Part shown: piece by piece, positions 1 through 15,608 of the stretch
How the letters are laid out: every line of letters begins with the position of its first letter
Numbering within the stretch: the first letter of the stretch is position 1
Virus record (IMG/VR): IMGVR_UViG_2718218398_000003
DNA: 45,775 nt
DNA from: a virus
Taxonomy: Duplodnaviria; Heunggongvirae; Uroviricota; Caudoviricetes
Reading direction: 5' to 3' (one strand)
Notes under the pieces: generated by a model
What the model saw: only the letters and a program-made list of their open reading frames with translations
Told to the model about the DNA's origin: nothing
The model's database searches: none
Position numbers and translations under genes: made by a program

Positions 1-249
1 ATGGCGGCAGCACAACCGCTGGTATTTGATGCAGAACTGGACACCGTGCGTGGGCGTCTTGGTAGCGTAAAAGGCGTTAATTACGATACGGCGATGTGGA
101 GTTCGGCAATTAACAGCCGCAACAACGTGACCACTGATGCAGGCGCTGGCTTTGAGCAAACATTGACGGGGCTAACGCTTGGTATCGACAGCCGTTTCTC
201 CCGTGAAGAAAGCAGCACAACTCAGGCGGGTGTGGTCTGGACGTTCTGA
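1..249 (+). CDS. C-terminal fragment of an autotransporter-type outer membrane protein (5' end outside window); host flank
   Basis: ORF runs in from the window edge and ends ...SSTTQAGVVWTF*, the aromatic-terminal beta-barrel signature of type V autotransporters. It lies outside the prophage boundary marked by the tRNA-Pro fragment. From memory the E. coli proL neighbourhood has an autotransporter gene (yejO); not verified. Confidence 0.5.
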   Translation: MAAAQPLVFDAELDTVRGRLGSVKGVNYDTAMWSSAINSRNNVTTDAGAGFEQTLTGLTLGIDSRFSREESSTTQAGVVWTF

Positions 250-350: not shown

Positions 351-396
351 TGGTCGGCACGAGAGGATTTGAACCTCCGACCCCCGACACCCCATG
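351..396 (-). other. tRNA-Pro 3' fragment (anticodon loop to CCA, 46 nt); probable prophage attachment core (attL)
   Basis: Reverse complement reads CATGGGGTGTCGGGGGTCGGAGGTTCAAATCCTCTCGTGCCGACCA, with T-loop GGTTCAAATCC, 3' acceptor strand and CCA, matching my recollection of E. coli tRNA-Pro(GGG). The upstream 30 nt (397-427) do not supply a complementary 5' acceptor strand (CGGCACG) or a D-arm, so this is not a complete tRNA gene. Confidence 0.7.
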
Positions 397-611
397 TCAC
401 CGCGCCTGAAACGCTGGAGACCGCGCCATTGCTGGGCTGGCAGGGTGTTTCACTGTGTGCGCAAACAGTGCATAATTCGCAAAATTCACGCTATATACAT
501 CAATGAGTTAAGAGAGATTTTTCCCCACTCCTAAATGGTCAGTTTTTGGAGCATTACTATATTAATAGGTTCCGTCTATAGCACTTTTTGATTTGCTTCT
601 AATATGCTTTT

Positions 612-638
612 CTGTGGATAAGATTTAGTTATCCACAG
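612..638. promoter_or_regulatory. perfect inverted pair of consensus DnaA-box 9-mers (TGTGGATAA / TTATCCACA)
   Basis: CTGTGGATAA-gatttag-TTATCCACAG: 10-bp perfect inverted repeat whose arms are the consensus DnaA box, in an AT-rich region about 200 bp upstream of the 835 ORF. Confidence 0.5.
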
Positions 639-834
639 ACTTATCTCCTAAGTTTCCGAGCAGCTACATGTTTTTTGTTGATTGTTTTATGTTTGGCGTA
701 AAGTCAACAATTACTTCGCTTTTTGACCATTTTAGCCCATTGGAAATTACGATCATCTTCATGTAACCTTCTAAAACTTACTAAGATTGCAGAAGTTAAA
801 GCAACATAGCTCGTAGTTTCTTAAAGGTGATTTA

Positions 835-1602
835 ATGCCACAGCCGGCGCTAAAAGCGAACGAAATCAGCAGTGAATTAATCGATATTCTTGCGGCTCGG
901 AATACGATATCCGAAATGCAATATTTTCGTTATATCAGAGATATAGAAAAGTTGCGCGACAGCGCATCTGAGGACTATCTCAAAGCGTTGGCTAATGGTG
1001 CTTTTGGGCGTAAAGATACTGCAGTTGCATTCTTTGAAGAAGCATTGAAGCATAACAACCTGATCATTGCTCAAAATTATGTAGTTTATCTCAACGATTA
1101 CGGCAGCTTCCGTGAAGTTGAACAAGTGGTAAATCGATTAGTTGAACGTTATAACTCCCCTACGATGCTGTCCCATGCATGGGAAGCTAACTTGTTCTTG
1201 GGGCGTATTGACAAAGCGCTCTACTATGCTGAGAGATTGATAAGTATGGTAGATGAAAAGGAGGCTGAATTGGTTAAGCACCTCGCAGCCACAGCACTGG
1301 CCCAATCCACGACCTTCAAAAGTGCAACTGGAATTACTGATGAAGAACTACAGGATATTGCAAACCGCATAGTGGATATCATGGCTGACCATAAAGTTAG
1401 TCCTGTTGCTATGTCTTTCTGCTCTATCCCTGAAGAGCGTACGTCATCATATGTCATGGCAGTTAATACTGAAGATTCTGATGTTCTCTCTGATATGAAC
1501 TTGGATATAGCATTTTCTCTTGCAGAAAATGAAAGTTTGATTGGAAAACCCTTCAGCGTATGGTTTGAAGGGCGTTTGGAGGAACCTGCGCGTGCCAGTT
1601 AA
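835..1602 (+). CDS. hypothetical protein (255 aa), first gene of att-proximal cargo operon
   Basis: ATG preceded by AGGTGA at 5-nt spacing; 255 codons; predicted mostly helical; no recognised motif; AT-rich relative to phage core. Confidence 0.55.
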   Translation: MPQPALKANEISSELIDILAARNTISEMQYFRYIRDIEKLRDSASEDYLKALANGAFGRKDTAVAFFEEALKHNNLIIAQNYVVYLNDYGSFREVEQVVNRLVERYNSPTMLSHAWEANLFLGRIDKALYYAERLISMVDEKEAELVKHLAATALAQSTTFKSATGITDEELQDIANRIVDIMADHKVSPVAMSFCSIPEERTSSYVMAVNTEDSDVLSDMNLDIAFSLAENESLIGKPFSVWFEGRLEEPARAS

Positions 1603-1975
1603 TAGTTCCGATTTTATCGCTTTCGCAAAAGATTGTGAAAAGCGTAACGACGAAATTGGTTACAGAAACGCTGTCGCACGTGCGTATTATGGTGCTTATC
1701 ACCACGTACTTCCGTGTTTGACCATGGGGCCGAAAGAAAGTCACCAAGGCCTCATTGACTATCTTGTTAACGATGCTTGGAAGGGTAACGAACCTTTTGA
1801 AAAAAGAGACTTAATTGGTTTGGGGTATGCTCTTCAATCGCTTAAGGATCAGAGAATAGTTTGTGATTACAGACTTAACGACACTATTACGCCAACCCAA
1901 TCAAGCACCGCGATTAAGACTGCAGAGAAATTAATCCAGCGTTGCGCTAATATGACCAAGTCTAAAGCGTCCTAA
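1592..1975 (+). CDS. HEPN-like small protein (about 127 aa), second gene of cargo operon
   Basis: Track ORF 1541..1975 begins at a TTG; an in-frame GTG at 1592 with GGAGG 9 nt upstream overlaps the stop of the upstream gene (1600-1602) and is the more likely start. Sequence ...YRNAVARAYYGAYHHVLPCLTMGPKESHQGLIDYL... resembles classical HEPN-domain signatures (recalled, not searched). Confidence 0.5.
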   Translation: MPVNSSDFIAFAKDCEKRNDEIGYRNAVARAYYGAYHHVLPCLTMGPKESHQGLIDYLVNDAWKGNEPFEKRDLIGLGYALQSLKDQRIVCDYRLNDTITPTQSSTAIKTAEKLIQRCANMTKSKAS

Positions 1976-1980
1976 TCCCC

Positions 1981-2008
1981 AAAATTGGCCTCATTTGAGG
2001 CCAATTTT
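1981..2008. terminator. bidirectional intrinsic terminator
   Basis: AAAA-TTGGCCTCA-tt-TGAGGCCAA-TTTT: perfect 9-bp stem flanked by A and T runs, directly after the stop of the 1975 ORF. Confidence 0.8.
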
Positions 2009-2044
2009 ATTATGCATTGTATTTAATTTCACCGTGCGGAAGCA

Positions 2045-2400
2045 TTACCCAATCATATGGTTCCGCGTATAAATTTTCGTTGATTTCGCGTCGCTGTGGG
2101 CTATGAGCCCTTGTGGTCTACTCCCTGTTTATCAAACAAAATGCAGCTAGTGCGCGTATTTTGTGGAATGTGGGGGCGCAGCTCCATCGTCAAATTATTA
2201 CACAAGCCTAACGAATCACGGGGCAATGAAAAGTATGGCTAAGATAGGCAGGTGCGGATACCTCTTTACTGCGTTTGTTATTACGCTCGGTATACGGTGA
2301 ACGATATACGGGCAGGCAACGTTATCGCGACTGTTATCAATAATACGTTTCAGTTTGTCCTCGAACTACATCACAACCGGCTTGAAAACTAATTACTGGA
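2045..2400 (-). pseudogene. 3' remnant of a tyrosine integrase gene (paralogous to the intact int at 3553-4737)
   Basis: Minus-strand translation ending at stop 2045-2047 gives ...QGLIAHSDAKSTKIYTRNHMIG*, clearly homologous to the intact integrase C-terminus ...QGRMAHSDAKSTKIYTKNHIDW...; nucleotide similarity to 3560-3950 continues to about 2400. No intact ORF of 60 aa or more is listed here, so it is degraded. Confidence 0.65.
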
Positions 2401-2458
2401 TTTTGTGCCTCCATAATCATATGATTTAAAATGTTATTTTATAAAAAAGGAGTTGTAT

Positions 2459-3415
2459 ATGACCAATTTGTATAAGTTTATGGGAGCGGATATAATTGAT
2501 AAATTGATGATGGATGAAACACATATAGGAATAAAATTCTCTCATTTACATGAATATAATGATCCCTATGAGTTTTTCCTTACTATTGATTTTAATCGCG
2601 GTTCTGATGAGTTAGCATTTTACAATGAAATGATTGGCATGGTTACAAAACAACCAGCAACTTGTTTTACGAAAAGCCCTGTGATACCACCTATGTGGGC
2701 ACATTATGCAGGTAATTCTTCTGGTTTTGTAATAGAGATTAATGAGGAGAAGTTTAAAAAGTATTTGGATGAAATCGGCTTCCAGGATCATAGTTCAATA
2801 GCAGATGTTGAATATAAAGATTCTCCAGATACAGGTATTGAAGACATTCTGGCGAGAGCATTTCATATCTGTAAACCTCGTTATATCTACTGGCTACAAT
2901 CCTGTATAATGACAGCCGCATATTTGACAAAACAAACTTGCTGGAGTTATGAGCAGGAACGTCGCGTAATAATTAATGAGAAAGCACTTACTAAACTGAA
3001 TGACAATCTTATGCTCCTTCCGGTACCGATTAATTGTATAACTGGAGTTATAGTTGGGCACAAATCAAATGATTTATTAAAGCAGAAAATTCAATCTTTA
3101 GCTAAAAAGGCTAAATGTAGATATTTCGAAATGGTAATAGGAAAAACAACAACTACACCATTTCTTTTATCTCAAAATCTCAAATCACACCAATTTATTA
3201 ATGGCAATATAATACCTGCATCAAGGCAATGTAAAAAATGTTATGAGCCTTTAAACATGGAAAATAAAGTTTGTGGCTGGTGTGGAATTACTAATCATGA
3301 TGTGAAAATGGCAGAGTACCGTAATTCATTTCGAATGATAGCCAACTATGGTGGGCTGGATAAATATATATCATCCATGAATAAGATTACTGAAGAGTAT
3401 AATAAGGGTAAATAA
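2459..3415 (+). CDS. DUF2971-like protein with C-terminal CxxC...CxxC zinc ribbon (318 aa)
   Basis: ATG at 2459 with AAGGAG 6 nt upstream (track start 2453 is a TTG). N-terminal ...LYKFMGADIIDKLMMDETHIGIKFSHLHEYNDPYEFF... and later ...PMWAHYAGNSSGFVIEI... and ...CWSYEQERRVI... fit my recollection of the DUF2971 family; C-terminus has CKKCYEPLNMENKVCGWCG. Very AT-rich. Confidence 0.6.
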   Translation: MTNLYKFMGADIIDKLMMDETHIGIKFSHLHEYNDPYEFFLTIDFNRGSDELAFYNEMIGMVTKQPATCFTKSPVIPPMWAHYAGNSSGFVIEINEEKFKKYLDEIGFQDHSSIADVEYKDSPDTGIEDILARAFHICKPRYIYWLQSCIMTAAYLTKQTCWSYEQERRVIINEKALTKLNDNLMLLPVPINCITGVIVGHKSNDLLKQKIQSLAKKAKCRYFEMVIGKTTTTPFLLSQNLKSHQFINGNIIPASRQCKKCYEPLNMENKVCGWCGITNHDVKMAEYRNSFRMIANYGGLDKYISSMNKITEEYNKGK

Positions 3416-3552: not shown

Positions 3553-4737
3553 CTAACCGGTTTTAATTTCTCCATGAGGGACAACAATCCAATCTATATG
3601 ATTTTTAGTATAAATTTTAGTAGATTTCGCATCGCTATGTGCCATTCGTCCCTGCGGATCAATCCCTTGTTTATCAAATAGGTGAGCTGCCAAAGCTCTT
3701 ATTTCATGGAATGTAGGTCTTTGTTCCATTGCTAGATGATTGCATAGTCCGAGTTTGTCTCGCACGGAAGAGAATGACCGACTCAAATAATCTGGTGCAA
3801 CTTGAGTTGGGTGCGAAACCTCTTTACTGCGTTTAACATGCCGTTCTGGGATTCTATGAACGACAAAGGGACTGGCCACATTGTCACGGCTATTGTCAAT
3901 TATCCGTTTCAATTCTTCACCAATTGGTATTGCAACATGTGATGCCTCCTTTTTTTGTACTTTTTGCCTATGGATGTATAGTGTACCATATATGCCATTT
4001 TGTGGTTGTTCGAACCAAACACATCCACATAAACCGTCTTTAGGTTCGCGAATTGAGTAACGGATTCGCGATACTTCGAGTCGTGCATGTGTAGTCTGCA
4101 ATGCTAGGTCCATTGCTGTTCTTAACCATGGTGCAGCGGCCTGCCTGATAGCTATAAAATGCTCGAGTGACAGGCGCCGTCTTTTCTTCTCATCAGTCCT
4201 ACGCATTTTTTTTCTGATGGCCGGGTTATCCTGCATTAGTGATTCATCGACCGCATAAGAGAACAACTTTTTAAGAAAGCTGACCTTTCTGTTCTGCACA
4301 TTTGCGGATGCGCTGGCATGATATTTGTTGATGTAGGCATTAACGTGTTCAAGTTCGATATCGCATGCCGGAACATTTACGAAAAACGCTTTTACGCGTA
4401 GAGCGTCATTTTTCCAGTCATCTAAGGTACTCTGGGAAGGTCGTTCGTCTTCGATAATTCTGGCCATTATGTGATCGACATGTTCAGCAAATGGTTTTGC
4501 TTCTCCGGTGACCCCGCCAGATTCTCTAATAAGATTATCCACTGATGGGTATAATTCTGATCGCATCCTCAGGTTGTACTCTCTGGCGATTGCAACGGCT
4601 ATTGCCCGATCCTTACCTATATTTTTCTTTTTTCCGGTAATAAGTGTGAATTTATAAACACCTCGATCTTTATCAAAAACCAGATAATCAGGAAGATGTC
4701 TGTATTCTTTTTTACGTGGCCTTGCCGCCATGGTCAT
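3553..4737 (-). CDS. int: tyrosine site-specific integrase
   Basis: 394 aa; C-terminal catalytic region with ...HEIRALAAHLF...RMAHSDAKSTKIY... (conserved H, R and Tyr nucleophile of lambda-family integrases); adjacent to excisionase. Confidence 0.93.
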   Translation of the reverse strand: MTMAARPRKKEYRHLPDYLVFDKDRGVYKFTLITGKKKNIGKDRAIAVAIAREYNLRMRSELYPSVDNLIRESGGVTGEAKPFAEHVDHIMARIIEDERPSQSTLDDWKNDALRVKAFFVNVPACDIELEHVNAYINKYHASASANVQNRKVSFLKKLFSYAVDESLMQDNPAIRKKMRRTDEKKRRRLSLEHFIAIRQAAAPWLRTAMDLALQTTHARLEVSRIRYSIREPKDGLCGCVWFEQPQNGIYGTLYIHRQKVQKKEASHVAIPIGEELKRIIDNSRDNVASPFVVHRIPERHVKRSKEVSHPTQVAPDYLSRSFSSVRDKLGLCNHLAMEQRPTFHEIRALAAHLFDKQGIDPQGRMAHSDAKSTKIYTKNHIDWIVVPHGEIKTG

Positions 4738-5220: not shown

Positions 5221-5579
5221 TTCTTATTCTCCGGTGCTTTCGGCATTACTGCCCAGTGAGTGATATTGACGTTTTCAAGGTCCCCGACCTGAAATGTCCA
5301 CTGCCATTCTCCGGTTTCTTTTTGTCCCCAGGTGTACCAGAGAGAACGCCAGCCAATTAGCCAGCCTTCTCCGTTAGCATCAAATAACAGAACACTTTCA
5401 TTTGCAGGTGGCAGTTCAGCTGACACTGGTATTATTTTGTTTTCCAGTGCCGCACATTTAGCTTCAAGCGCGTCGAATTTACGTACTAGGTACTCAGCAT
5501 TTGTTTCGTTCACTTTCAGATCTCGCGGTACACATTTCCCGCGAAGAAACCCTTCCATTTCGAAAACATTCATGCGCAT
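5217..5579 (-). CDS. DUF551-like phage protein
   Basis: 120 aa; C-terminal ...WQWTFQVGDLENVNITHWAVMPKAPE resembles the DUF551 signature common in lambdoid early-left regions (recalled). Confidence 0.65.
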   Translation of the reverse strand: MRMNVFEMEGFLRGKCVPRDLKVNETNAEYLVRKFDALEAKCAALENKIIPVSAELPPANESVLLFDANGEGWLIGWRSLWYTWGQKETGEWQWTFQVGDLENVNITHWAVMPKAPENKK

Positions 5580-6106
5580 TTGCGTAACTCCGATAACTCG
5601 TTAAAGCGTTCCATAAACATCCCGTAGGCATGGCCCGGTGCCAGTGGAATCACGTTGAACATCTCTGTTGCCGGGATACCTTCCAGTACAGGCCAGAAAG
5701 AGCCATCATCAAGCCCGAGATCGCGGCGTTCGGTTGCCAGCATGATGAGATCGGCATATTTCACGGGCGTACTCATAACTGGGGGTAACCCGTATTTCTC
5801 ACGGATTACGGCGTCTATTTTTTCTTCCATTTGTTTATAGTCAGGAAGAAGGCGTTTCAGTGGTGCGGGAATGTCCTGGCAATACGCTTCTGTTGCATCA
5901 TGCATTAACGCTTCAAAAGCAAATTCCTGCGGCACCAACTGGCTGCAAAGAACCGCATGTTGGGCGACGCTGTAGAAGTGCGAAAGATGACCGGCAAAGC
6001 GACAGATATTTGAAAGGGAAACCGCGATATCGTTAATATCGATGTCGTCTTTATTTATCCTGTCATAATAAAAATGCTTCCCGGAAAAAGTTTTAATAAA
6101 TGACAT
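5570..6106 (-). CDS. HD-domain phosphohydrolase (YfdR-like 5'-nucleotidase family)
   Basis: Contains H...HD metal-binding motif (...VAQHAVLCSQ...ALMHDATEAY...). Start placed at internal ATG (MSFIKTF) with GGAG 7 nt upstream; track ORF begins 27 nt earlier. Confidence 0.75.
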   Translation of the reverse strand: MSFIKTFSGKHFYYDRINKDDIDINDIAVSLSNICRFAGHLSHFYSVAQHAVLCSQLVPQEFAFEALMHDATEAYCQDIPAPLKRLLPDYKQMEEKIDAVIREKYGLPPVMSTPVKYADLIMLATERRDLGLDDGSFWPVLEGIPATEMFNVIPLAPGHAYGMFMERFNELSELRKCA

Positions 6107-6233
6107 TTTGTTCTCCACGTATATGCGCTGCACCGCGCTGAATTTTGGTTAAAGAAAACCCTCGCCATCAGGCGATTATTGAGTTAATTACGTTTCCATA
6201 AATGCCCCCGCAGGGGCATTTGCAGTAATGAAA

Positions 6234-7058
6234 TCAGGCGGTGAAAGTACCAATAAAGGTTTCTACTTTGCTGTCTTTGAATTTTTCAACAAGCAGATCA
6301 CGAAATTCGTTAGCCATTTCTTCCTGTACTGCTTCCAGCTGAATAATGCGCAGAACCAGTACAGGGCGATCACCAGTGATAATGCTGAGGCGTAATTTAA
6401 ACGGACGTTCTTTCAGGCCTTCAAACGGAACGCATTTAAACTCAAATGCTACTGGCATAATGTCTTTGGTTTTCGCTTCGACAGACTCCATCAGAGAGCG
6501 TTTGCCGCTGAAGTCATTGTCTTCAAAATCAGCGGTCTGGTTTGCTTCAATCGTGATTTTACGGACCGCCGCAGCCGCTTTTGTTGCCTGAATGGCGTCA
6601 CCATTAGCATCAAAGCCCACAAGGTAGTCGGCCCAGTCTTCAATCCATTCTGCCAGTGACTTCTGGGAGTTACGCTCGCCGTTAACAGACAACAGGGCAG
6701 AGAACGGTGCTGTCTTTTTCAGTTTGAGAGTGGCGGTGTTATCTGCGTGACCTGGTTCATCAATAGTACCCAGGTTAAGCACACTGACGGCTCGCATATT
6801 ATCAGCATCGATAAAGCAGCGGGTGCCTTCATCTGCAAGATCTTTAGAATAACGGGTAAAGTCATCGATGCTGGCAGTGGAAAGCGCACCACGGAAACGG
6901 AAGCGATTTAAATTAAATTTTTCCAGATCATGAATGCGGAAATTCTCAGGCAATGCCACAGCATCGGCACCAATCTTACTGATAATTTCATTAACACCCT
7001 GAGCAGAAATAAGGGCATGGATTTGATTAATTGCGGTTGCGTCTAAGTTCTGAGACAT
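6234..7058 (-). CDS. DUF2303/YfdQ-like phage protein
   Basis: 274 aa; resembles my recollection of the CPS-53 yfdQ product in sequence and length; function unknown. Confidence 0.7.
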
Positions 7059-8881: not shown

Positions 8882-8901
8882 GCGTTTATTACATTTCTTT
8901 A

Positions 8902-8964
8902 TTGCGTGTTAAGCAAATCAACTTGCGCAAAATATTTGCGTGAAATAATATGCTCATCACGCAA
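8902..8964. promoter_or_regulatory. OR-like operator/promoter region between cI and cro
   Basis: Contains TTGCGTGTTAAGCAA (15-bp site), the 8-bp palindrome TTGCGCAA, and inverted repeat TTGCGTGA-N13-TCACGCAA in the 97-bp divergent intergenic region. Confidence 0.6.
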
Positions 8965-8978
8965 TATGTGGAGGTAAT

Positions 8979-15158: not shown

Positions 15159-15165
15159 TTAAGAT

Positions 15166-15194
15166 GAGAAAGATACCTACACAGTATCTTTCTC
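15166..15194. terminator. strong hairpin (11-bp perfect stem) between convergent Q and the accessory cassette
   Basis: GAGAAAGATAC-ctacaca-GTATCTTTCTC, overlapping the stop of the 143-aa minus-strand gene and 8 nt after the Q stop; flanked by A/T-rich sequence. Confidence 0.6.
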
Positions 15195-15608
15195 AATTTG
15201 TTCAAATTTTGGTAATGGATTTGCTGTACTATTTTTTCCTATATTGATCATTATTTCCACAGTTGCTTCTCGAGAGCGTAGCAGCTTTTGCCTAAACTCA
15301 TCAGTGGTATATTTCGATGCTAATTGCTTATCAATGGTCTCGAGATCTCGGAGGCATTGCTTTCTTTTTGCTGCATCTTCTGGTGATTCAAGTCCATGAC
15401 GTGCAATTACCCAGCAAAGTATATATGTCAGGATTGCCGAAATAAGAGGTATTATTAAATATAGTAATTTCGCAAGGTTTGAATTGGCATCAGGTACGCA
15501 AAATGTTACCAGACCTGACAAAATGATCCCAAAACCGCCAGTAGAGAGGGTTGAAGTGACTGGGCTAGTTGGTTTTTTTTCATCAGACATTTGAACTGGT
15601 GCCGTCAT
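15177..15608 (-). CDS. small membrane protein (143 aa, two predicted TM helices), third gene of accessory cassette
   Basis: Hydrophobic segments GGFGIILSGLVTFCV and LLYLIIPLISAILTYILCWVI; overlaps the upstream gene by 26 nt; AT-rich; no recognised motif. Confidence 0.6.
   Translation of the reverse strand: MTAPVQMSDEKKPTSPVTSTLSTGGFGIILSGLVTFCVPDANSNLAKLLYLIIPLISAILTYILCWVIARHGLESPEDAAKRKQCLRDLETIDKQLASKYTTDEFRQKLLRSREATVEIMINIGKNSTANPLPKFEQIEKDTV

Follow-up and report, generated by a model that had tools for sequence, protein, structure and literature searches.

A conserved cluster of putative DnaA boxes upstream of a two-gene TPR/HEPN cargo module in an Escherichia coli lambdoid prophage

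Locus and Palindrome

The stretch of DNA analyzed here is the viral record IMGVR_UViG_2718218398_000003 with 45,775 nucleotides (nt), which is called the window at its full length. It represents an Escherichia coli lambdoid prophage inserted at the tRNA-Pro gene (proL). Close to its left end, two boxes matching the consensus of the DnaA protein form a perfect palindrome in a noncoding region, and downstream of it lie two overlapping cargo genes, coding for a tetratricopeptide repeat (TPR) protein of 255 amino acids and for a HEPN/UPF0332-like protein of 127 amino acids (Table 1). The palindrome, the elements around it and the regulation they may confer on this TPR/HEPN module are the subject of this study.

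For the 255-residue protein, a weak match to a TPR-S "sensor" was found. The 127-residue protein was assigned to phrog_5176, shows profile matches to the HEPN-domain structures 9xbd and 9xbc and the UPF0332 structure 2hsb of the PDB, and is modeled as a five-helix bundle; its homologs are named HEPN or UPF0332 in some sources. The invariant residues of this protein include R25, N26, R30, H37, H51, R88, and D92. By profile searches and structure models, no DNA-binding domain or fold (including helix-turn-helix, ribbon-helix-helix, and AbrB) was recognized in either protein, and the PADLOC library contains no model for either of them. The pair resembles conflict or toxin-type modules, and the 11-nt overlap together with the GTG start of the second gene points to translational coupling.

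The arms of the palindrome, TCTGTGGATAA (611–621) and TTATCCACAGA (629–639), were recovered by a repeat search as 11 nt long, 100% complementary, and separated by 7 nt. The original prediction had described a perfect inverted repeat of 10 base pairs (bp) with a 7-bp spacer, of which the perfection and the spacer stand, while the arms are longer. It had also described two exact consensus DnaA 9-mers located about 200 bp upstream of the open reading frame at 835. Indeed, both arms contain an exact TTATCCACA, both 9-mers match TT(A/T)TNCACA, the consensus in which position 5 is free (Schaper and Messer, quoted in bioRxiv 10.1101/866236), and the measured distance from the end of the right arm to the ATG at 835 is 196 nt. 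Exact copies of TTATCCACA occur three times in the 45.8-kb window compared to 0.37 expected, a number which none of 100 shuffles reached, and two of the three are the palindrome arms. Three places of the window contain perfect inverted repeats with arms of 11 nt or more and loops of 3–10 nt, compared to 0.1 expected. The local G+C content around the palindrome is about 35–44%. The paired boxes are not a product of chance, as had been supposed from the start.

Conservation of the Two Boxes

The conservation of the palindrome was analyzed in an alignment of 26 distinct upstream regions of 333 nt each (37–100% protein identity), which originate from Escherichia, Citrobacter, Klebsiella, Enterobacter, Brenneria, and Pseudocitrobacter as well as from Yersinia, the latter from a different prophage slot. 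The core alignment comprises 51 columns and 24 sequences. These sequences are related, and the covariation and G.T counts given below are numbers of alignment cells and not of independent events. Individual loci are cited by their L numbers.

The comparison with homologous cargo operons, which had been proposed along with the original prediction, gave a positive answer, as the inverted pair is kept across genera in the 26-region alignment. Its center is located 204–222 nt before the ATG in 26 homologous loci. In Yersinia the inverted pair lies 246–222 nt before the ATG, and in the Lonsdalea locus L008 it is degenerate. The column identity in the 24 sequences is 0.91 for box 1 and 0.94 for box 2, whereas the spacer reaches 0.56 and the 5′ flank 0.54. 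The spacer has a length of 7 nt in 19 and of 8 nt in 5 of the 24 homologs. In box 1, the six positions 1–3 and 7–9 are all invariant, position 4 is T or C, and position 6 is C, A or, in one case, T. In box 2, positions 1, 2, 4, 7, and 8 are invariant, and positions 3 and 9 show one deviating sequence each among the 24. At position 5, each of the four bases is found in both arms, and position 6 is C or, in some lineages, A. As read from the alignment, this variation profile is that of the DnaA consensus TTATNCACA. The departures from the strict consensus, at position 6 and at position 4 of box 1, are of types found in auxiliary boxes bound in chromatin immunoprecipitation (ChIP) experiments (PMC11317965 Table 1). 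The homolog variants TTACnCACA and TTnnnAACA are of the same kinds as the auxiliary boxes of purH (TTACGCACA), rne (TTACTCACA), datA (TTGTAAACA), and nrdD (TTAAGAACA) listed there (PMC11317965 Table 1). Exact matches to TTATNCACA number 38 in the 26 regions of 333 nt compared to 0.65 expected by shuffles, which is a descriptive value as the sequences are related.

The same exact inverted pair also occurs inside obvious DnaA-box clusters of unrelated viral contigs. The exact sequence TGTGGATAA-N7-TTATCCACA was found in 35 viral contigs, about five of which carry the TPR/HEPN module. In the environmental viral contigs L027, L028, L030, L031, L038, and L041 and their relatives, TGTGGATAACTCTAACTTATCCACA is directly followed by CTATCCACA; these clusters lie in a conserved noncoding stretch of unrelated phages.

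A Third Box and Site Turnover

Box 2 is followed by a further box in direct orientation, box 3, and both together form a candidate double DnaA box (Table 1). In E. coli, ChIP-seq revealed in vivo DnaA binding almost only at two direct boxes 2–3 bp apart, and binding was abolished if one base was added between the double boxes or if either box was mutated (PMC11317965). When scored by matches to TTATCCACA, the double box of the window reaches 15/18, which 2 of 200 shuffles also reach, and most homologs score 13–16/18; the range for bound sites, counted by hand from Table 1 of PMC11317965, is 13–17. The functional unit probably includes this third box, which had been missed by the original prediction.

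The first four positions of box 3 are conserved as TT(A/G)T. In the loci L016, L169, L184, L185, and L198, box 3 matches the full consensus (TTATGCACA, TTATCCACA or TTATACACA, in which position 5 alone differs). In these five loci the right arm reads TTATnAACA, and so does the left arm, except in L185. L016, L184, L185, and L198 form a clade with 37–38% identity. Across the homologs, a consensus box 2 goes along with a decayed box 3. The three boxes of Yersinia carry a single mismatch each, those of L012 carry 0, 2, and 1. Since box 3 compensates for weakened arms, the three sites appear to be read by one factor of DnaA specificity. This compensating pattern argues for a single DnaA-specific factor, and neither a pure dyad operator nor a hairpin would predict it. 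A fourth, box-4-like block is tentatively placed further downstream (Table 1); L013–15, L180, L196, and L197 have one-mismatch sites there, at -159 to -162 relative to the ATG.

Promoter and Further Upstream Elements

In a position-by-position scan, the best candidate promoter of the module was found to be conserved at its alignment position in 22 of the 26 homologs. TGG of the -35 and TA..CT of the -10 hexamer never change, and each of the 26 regions has the same register of 23 nt from -35 to -10; a stricter promoter scan did not detect TTGGAA-18-TAACCT. The transcription start is predicted near 776, which would place the box cluster at about -165 to -127. The distance from box 2 to the -10 hexamer is 133–136 nt in most homologs, 145 nt in one clade, and 127 nt in the Lonsdalea locus L008. 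Other promoter candidates, a minus-strand promoter starting from TTGACT of the palindrome P2 (see below) and the plus-strand combination TTGATT-15-TAAAGT, were judged weak due to poor -10 hexamers or the 15-nt spacer.

Between the boxes and the promoter, a second palindrome, P2, has the form GTCAA-N3-TTGAC(AT) in homologs including L005, L009, L013, L170, L177, and L196. In the window and the loci closest to it, the right half of P2 is degenerate. The distance from P2 to the -35 hexamer is 38 nt in 21 of 26 regions, 48 nt in the 37–38% clade, 37 nt in L005, and 31 nt in L008. As 48 nt are one helical turn more than 38 nt, phase dependence is suggested, and P2 may be a site for a second, dimeric regulator acting in a phase-dependent manner. 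Upstream of box 1, the block CTATAGCACTTTTTG is conserved, also in the Yersinia version (Table 1).

In the presumed 5′ untranslated region, the homologs share a leader hairpin of the type TTGC(T)-N8-11-(A)GCAA, in which the changes are compatible with G.U pairs. Past the -10 hexamer, a conserved CCTTC (764–775) could pair with AAGG of the ribosome-binding site (822–830). The hairpin and this pairing may exert translational control on the first gene.

The Yersinia loci L200/L201, belonging to a Y. enterocolitica prophage, contain in addition the sequence TTATCCACT-GGGTG-TGTGGATAA, which is located 124–102 nt before the ATG at 2241 and overlaps the position of the module -35 hexamer in the other homologs.

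Spread of the TPR/HEPN Module

In a collection of 5.8 billion proteins, only about 27 relatives of the 255-residue protein were found, all from Enterobacterales. Species-representative genomes added only two loci, and a tblastn search of deposited phage genomes with this protein gave no match. The gene pair is located between an attachment (att) junction and a convergent integrase gene in Brenneria, Lonsdalea, Citrobacter (three species), Enterobacter, Klebsiella (two species), and Pseudocitrobacter as well as in metagenomic and viral contigs. Its integration sites in lambdoid prophages vary, one clade has a different integrase family, and the Yersinia copy is flanked by the gene of the antiterminator Q and by the lysis genes. 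Because of the varying sites and the Yersinia copy in the Q-lysis slot, the pair is, on genomic context, a mobile cargo module.

The stretch from 421 to 527 shows an 87% match in prophages which occupy the same site with different cargo. Since this part is common to them, the variable cargo is taken to start near 528, and the palindrome to be part of it. In 12 kb of a related prophage in the same slot with other cargo, no TTATNCACA was found. Downstream of the module lies a diverged and frameshifted integrase remnant with 36–39% identity to residues 257–392 of the intact prophage integrase. Since this stub is found where the homologous loci have an intact integrase, module and stub are the relic of an earlier or recombined element. 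The "cargo operon" of the original prediction is thus cargo, as stated; it should be seen as a relic two-gene module with a truncated integrase, standing beside the prophage's own cargo and integrase.

DnaA Control and Alternative Explanations

The palindrome is best read as the core of a small DnaA-box cluster, which would be a cis-regulatory part of the mobile TPR/HEPN module with DnaA as the selected ligand, a reading held with slightly more confidence than doubt. The cluster probably ties the expression of the module to DnaA. Host DnaA would bind to the high-affinity box 2 and, cooperatively, to box 3 as a direct double box, as well as to the inverted box 1. Anchored at this distant site, it would modulate the promoter at 740–769, and module expression would track the amount or the nucleotide state of free DnaA. 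Since a consensus box of the Yersinia version sits on the -35 hexamer, negative control may be favored, with DnaA oligomerizing from the anchor towards the promoter. For oriC it is established that DnaA-ATP spreads from strong to weak sites (PMC5742627). As the module has no DNA-binding fold and yet is common to at least six genera, the binding factor is expected to come from the host or from diverse phages. The DnaA reading of the original prediction is supported in part, as the conservation pattern, the turnover of the third box, and the lack of a DNA-binding cargo protein are consistent with DnaA boxes.

Several observations weigh against DnaA as the ligand, some of which also speak for the alternatives discussed below. 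The inverted pair with its 7-bp gap, which the original prediction had taken as the DnaA site, is not itself the arrangement reported as required in vivo; the right arm together with box 3 is the candidate for it. In this direct pair with its 3-bp gap, box 3 matches at only 6/9 positions, and the double box of the Klebsiella-type homologs scores only 12/18. Only 13 of the 32 consensus boxes of E. coli lie in bound regions (PMC11317965). The module versions of Serratia and Pectobacterium contain no box. Among the inverted DnaA-box pairs with spacers N0–30 listed for viral contigs, N7 accounts for only 2 of 139, so that a special N7 architecture is unsupported. Finally, the cluster is located about 90–130 bp upstream of the best-supported -35 hexamer (740–745), and due to this distance it would be a distal element rather than an operator that overlaps with the promoter.

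The palindrome could also be, as the original prediction had allowed for another dimeric regulator, the operator of a regulator of the helix-turn-helix type other than DnaA, whose half-site coincides with a DnaA box, which is considered fairly unlikely. The symmetry is perfect over 11 nt and thus extends past the 9-mer, and symmetric double changes from G-C to T-A occurred in two or three lineages. They are found in L169 and the 37–38% clade and amount to 10 cells in three pairs, which is not reached by any of 500 shuffles. L169 has a perfect TTGTTAATAA/TTATTAACAA palindrome, and in the 37–38% clade the spacer changes from 7 to 8 nt together with the half-site. Reasoning from the sequence, ATAA/TTAT and TGTG/CACA are about one and two helical turns apart, so that contacts on one face of the helix are possible, and with P2 the region shows a further dyad-type site. 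However, no candidate regulator gene moves with the module, whose proteins have TPR and HEPN folds, and the neighboring genes differ between the att-int and the Q-lysis contexts. The CI/Cro repeats of the prophage are of the TTGCGCAAA type and unrelated to the palindrome, which was therefore also rejected as an operator of prophage immunity. Among the E. coli regulators compared, LexA (CTGT-N8-ACAG), CRP, Fur, HipB, ArgR, Zur, and Ogr/Delta (TGT-N12-ACA), none is known to have a site that fits the spacing. Moreover, the free position of the half-site is exactly the N of the DnaA consensus, and with a dyad operator one would not expect a direct third box, 3 bp away, to reach the perfect DnaA consensus in loci with weakened arms. 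The operator of an autoregulated toxin-antitoxin system was rejected as well, as the module encodes a TPR protein and a helical bundle and no DNA-binding antitoxin, and about 125 bp separate the palindrome from the candidate -10 hexamer downstream of it.

A function of the inverted repeat as a nucleic-acid hairpin, either as a plus-strand RNA stem-loop involved in stability, processing or attenuation, or as a cruciform or single-strand DNA hairpin, is very unlikely. As RNA, the hairpin of the window is stable (-15.2 kcal/mol, z = -4.5), 91% of the cells pair across the 24 homologs, and the covariation is above that of all 500 shuffles. Changes in a single arm result in G.T in 20 compared to A.C in 5 cells, and G.T is tolerated only in plus-strand RNA. 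Yet 4 of the 11 pairs are constant and another 3 show changes in one arm alone, amid diverged surroundings, so that the pattern of the arms reflects conservation of sequence and not covariation. In 8 of the 24 homologs the bases at box position 5 do not pair, and the predicted stability collapses in L012 (-1.0 kcal/mol), L197 (-3.3), L185 (-5.0), and L196 (-6.6), in which the boxes are good. No conserved promoter was found upstream of the repeat, the best conserved one being downstream at 740–769. The stem has a G+C content of 36% and is followed by ACTTATC on the plus and AAAGCAT on the minus strand; at 611–639 there is no intrinsic terminator on either strand and no U-tract, and Rfam gave only sub-threshold chance matches for the inverted repeat. 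A terminator or a known RNA family was rejected on these grounds and due to the instability of the hairpin in several homologs.

It is likewise very improbable that the cluster acts on DnaA itself, by datA-like titration or by reactivation as in the DnaA-reactivating sequences (DARS), or that it serves as a bidirectional DnaA roadblock insulating the module from read-in transcription. Its composition is that of a DARS core, with one box opposite to two direct boxes 3 bp apart, the Yersinia version contains an exact convergent pair resembling boxes I and II with a 5-bp gap, and homologs of YfdQ and of YfdR, which binds DnaA in K-12 (PMC4776307), are encoded in the same prophage. Against this, the arrangement is the mirror image of DARS, with divergent boxes and a gap of 7 instead of 5 bp, and by eye no IHF or Fis sites and no further boxes of the datA or DARS2 type were recognized. 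The IHF-like site at about 500–512 belongs to the att arm common to prophages with other cargo, and many prophages bearing the module lack yfdR. The cluster moves with the two genes and keeps a near-fixed distance to their promoter, which points to cis regulation of the module genes. A replication origin of the oriC or plasmid type was rejected, since no AT-rich repeats or iterons were found in 250–1000 and the neighbors are the att junction and the TPR/HEPN genes.

An arm of the phage attachment site attP, with sites for Int, Xis, and IHF, was also rejected. The att-arm-like sequence stops near 527, before the palindrome. A related prophage, likewise inserted at proL, with other cargo and the same annotated integrase type (lambda-type Arm-binding domain), lacks the element, and the element is kept with a different integrase family in L016 and in the Q-lysis slot, where no integrase is nearby.

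As an extension of DnaA control, the TPR/HEPN pair might be a conflict system of the prophage, serving in defense or addiction, in which DnaA bound to the cluster restrains the HEPN operon and DnaA occupancy acts as an infection sensor. This is quite improbable. If true, the stripping or titration of DnaA by a box-rich phage or plasmid, by host DNA degradation or by the prophage's YfdR would alter module expression. In a variant of this idea, the cluster, and especially the DARS-like pair of Yersinia, would feed back on the DnaA-ATP/ADP cycle of the lysogen.

Comparison With Known DnaA-Box Arrangements

The closest known counterparts are the double DnaA boxes of E. coli upstream of nrdA, dnaA, rpoH, polA, purH, and nrdD (Stringer, Fitzgerald and Wade, 2024; PMC11317965), in which the direct second box is 3 bp away and often degenerate, as in the window. 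The likeness extends to the sequence, with TTATCCACA gac TTATCTCCT in the window, TTATCCACA gga CTTTCCAGA at dnaA, and TTATCCACA aag TTATGCACT at nrdA (PMC11317965). Like the E. coli double boxes, box 2 of the window consists of TTATCCACA followed by G and is located upstream of a gene; this G also matches the flank of boxes of the oriC R1/R4 type (PMC11317965 Table 1). In contrast to them, the window adds an equally conserved inverted box 7 bp upstream, and the cluster, for which DnaA binding is putative, belongs to the cargo of a mobile prophage and not to a chromosomal gene of replication or nucleotide metabolism.

A DARS core has three boxes, of which box I is oriented against the other two, II and III (PMC5742627; PMC6868365). 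DARS1 of K-12 reads TTATCCACT attcc TGTGGATAA cca TGTGTATTA. The window shares with DARS1 and DARS2 the number of boxes, the single opposed box, the two direct boxes 3 bp apart, and the combination of one full consensus box with weaker ones. A direct box at the place of box III, 3 bp from box II, is present in the window (641–649), whereas a convergent pair corresponding to boxes I and II with a 5-bp gap is absent; the opposed boxes converge in DARS1 (TTATCCACT-N5-TGTGGATAA) and diverge in the window (TGTGGATAA-N7-TTATCCACA). Since the geometry is mirrored, although the composition is the same, the cluster is not a DARS core. A convergent N5 pair was seen in the Yersinia variant only; this additional pair corresponds to boxes I and II of DARS1 in orientation, 5-bp spacing, and the mismatch in box I, but box III is absent.

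The boxes R1 and R4 of oriC have the same relative orientation (cTGTGGATAAc ... gTTATCCACAg) and the same flanking C and G as the arms of the palindrome. They mark, however, the two outer ends of the DnaA-box region (PMC5742627), with low-affinity sites between them and adjoining the unwinding element, whereas in the window the boxes are 7 bp apart and neither AT-rich 13-mers nor replication genes are nearby. In the first-step-transfer region of T5-like phages (bioRxiv 10.1101/866236), phage boxes also lie away from an origin, in pairs 3 bp apart and in inverted repeats, and consensus boxes are mixed with the same variants TTATCAACA and TTATTAACA. There, a lytic phage carries eight boxes within long inverted repeats, which are proposed to stop DNA injection, whereas the window contains three or four boxes upstream of a cargo promoter.

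As determined by ChIP-seq, the DnaA regulon of K-12 is small, with 16 bound regions, and centers on replication, the supply of nucleotides, DNA repair, and the metabolism of RNA (PMC11317965). A conserved cluster in mobile cargo would extend DnaA control to accessory genes, which are probably conflict-related, and would provide a natural test of the "double box" rule, which an inverted third box might modify. The 26 diverged upstream regions represent a ready mutational map of boxes 1–3, P2, the -35 and -10 hexamers, and the leader hairpin. If DnaA does not bind, the locus would define the operator of a regulator common to many Enterobacterales.

Prophage Context and Attachment Site

The features of the locus are listed in Table 1. 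In complete genomes the order is narP, the autotransporter remnant, the att junction, and the prophage.

Table 1. Features at the left end of the prophage and further elements of the window discussed in the text
Feature	Position	Strand	Remarks
Autotransporter (yejO-type) pseudogene, end	1–249		
Prophage-host junction	351–527	-	tRNA-Pro 3′ 46 nt, then attP-arm-like stretch
tRNA-Pro 3′ part, att core	351–396	-	exact match to the 3′ 46 nt
att-arm-like stretch	397–527		includes IHF-consensus-like CATCAATGAGTTA (~500–512)
Noncoding region containing the palindrome	528–834		
Conserved block	576–590		CTATAGCACTTTTTG; 31–34 nt before box 1 in 25/26 regions, 44 nt in L012
Sequence around the palindrome	601–650		aatatgctttTCTGTGGATAAgatttagTTATCCACAGActtatctccta
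Box 1	613–621	-	exact TTATCCACA, core of the left arm (611–621)
Spacer between the arms	622–628		7 nt, GATTTAG
Box 2	629–637	+	exact TTATCCACA, core of the right arm (629–639), best-conserved box
Candidate double DnaA box (box 2 + box 3)	629–649	+	
Box 3	641–649	+	TTATCTCCT, 6/9, degenerate; direct, 3 bp past box 2
Box-4-like block	676–684	-	TGTTGATTG, degenerate in the window; TGTTGATAA or AGTGGATAA in homologs; weak evidence
Palindrome P2	703–715		right half degenerate in the window (GTCAAcaaTTACT)
Best candidate promoter of the module	740–769	+	TTGGAA, 18 nt, TAACCT
Leader hairpin TTGC...GCAA	787–804	+	presumed 5′ untranslated region, read from the alignment
Cargo gene 1, 255-aa TPR protein	835–1602	+	small alpha/beta C-terminal domain; high-confidence model
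Cargo gene 2, 127-aa HEPN/UPF0332-like protein	1592–1975	+	GTG start, 11-nt overlap with gene 1
Perfect inverted repeat	1981–2008		directly past the HEPN gene stop, terminator-like by position
Integrase C-terminal remnant	~2020–2410	-	diverged, frameshifted
DUF2971 gene	2459–3415	+	PADLOC candidate defence system PDC-S31, E = 5e-22
Intact prophage integrase	3553–4737	-	
YfdR and YfdQ homologs	5570–6133 and 6234–7058	-	RefSeq names
CI/Cro intergenic region	8882–8978		repeats of TTGCGCAAA type
Further perfect inverted repeat	15165–15195		with 1981–2008, the other two of the window

No intact tRNA was found in the window by ARAGORN, and the 5′ acceptor strand is unpaired at the junction. The minus-strand stretch 351–427 is a pseudo-tRNA, in which the 3′ 46 nt of tRNA-Pro are fused to phage sequence. 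In the near-identical genome NZ_CM125665 (H48), RefSeq calls the equivalent 78 nt a tRNA-Pro; a few more tRNA-like bases are kept there.

The prophage encodes a homolog of YfdR in addition to carrying the DnaA-box cluster. In K-12, overexpression of yfdQRST inhibits replication initiation (PMC4776307). A link between YfdR and the cluster may be a coincidence, given the many module carriers without yfdR. Finally, the DUF2971 gene between the integrase remnant and the intact integrase is a second, independent cargo gene.

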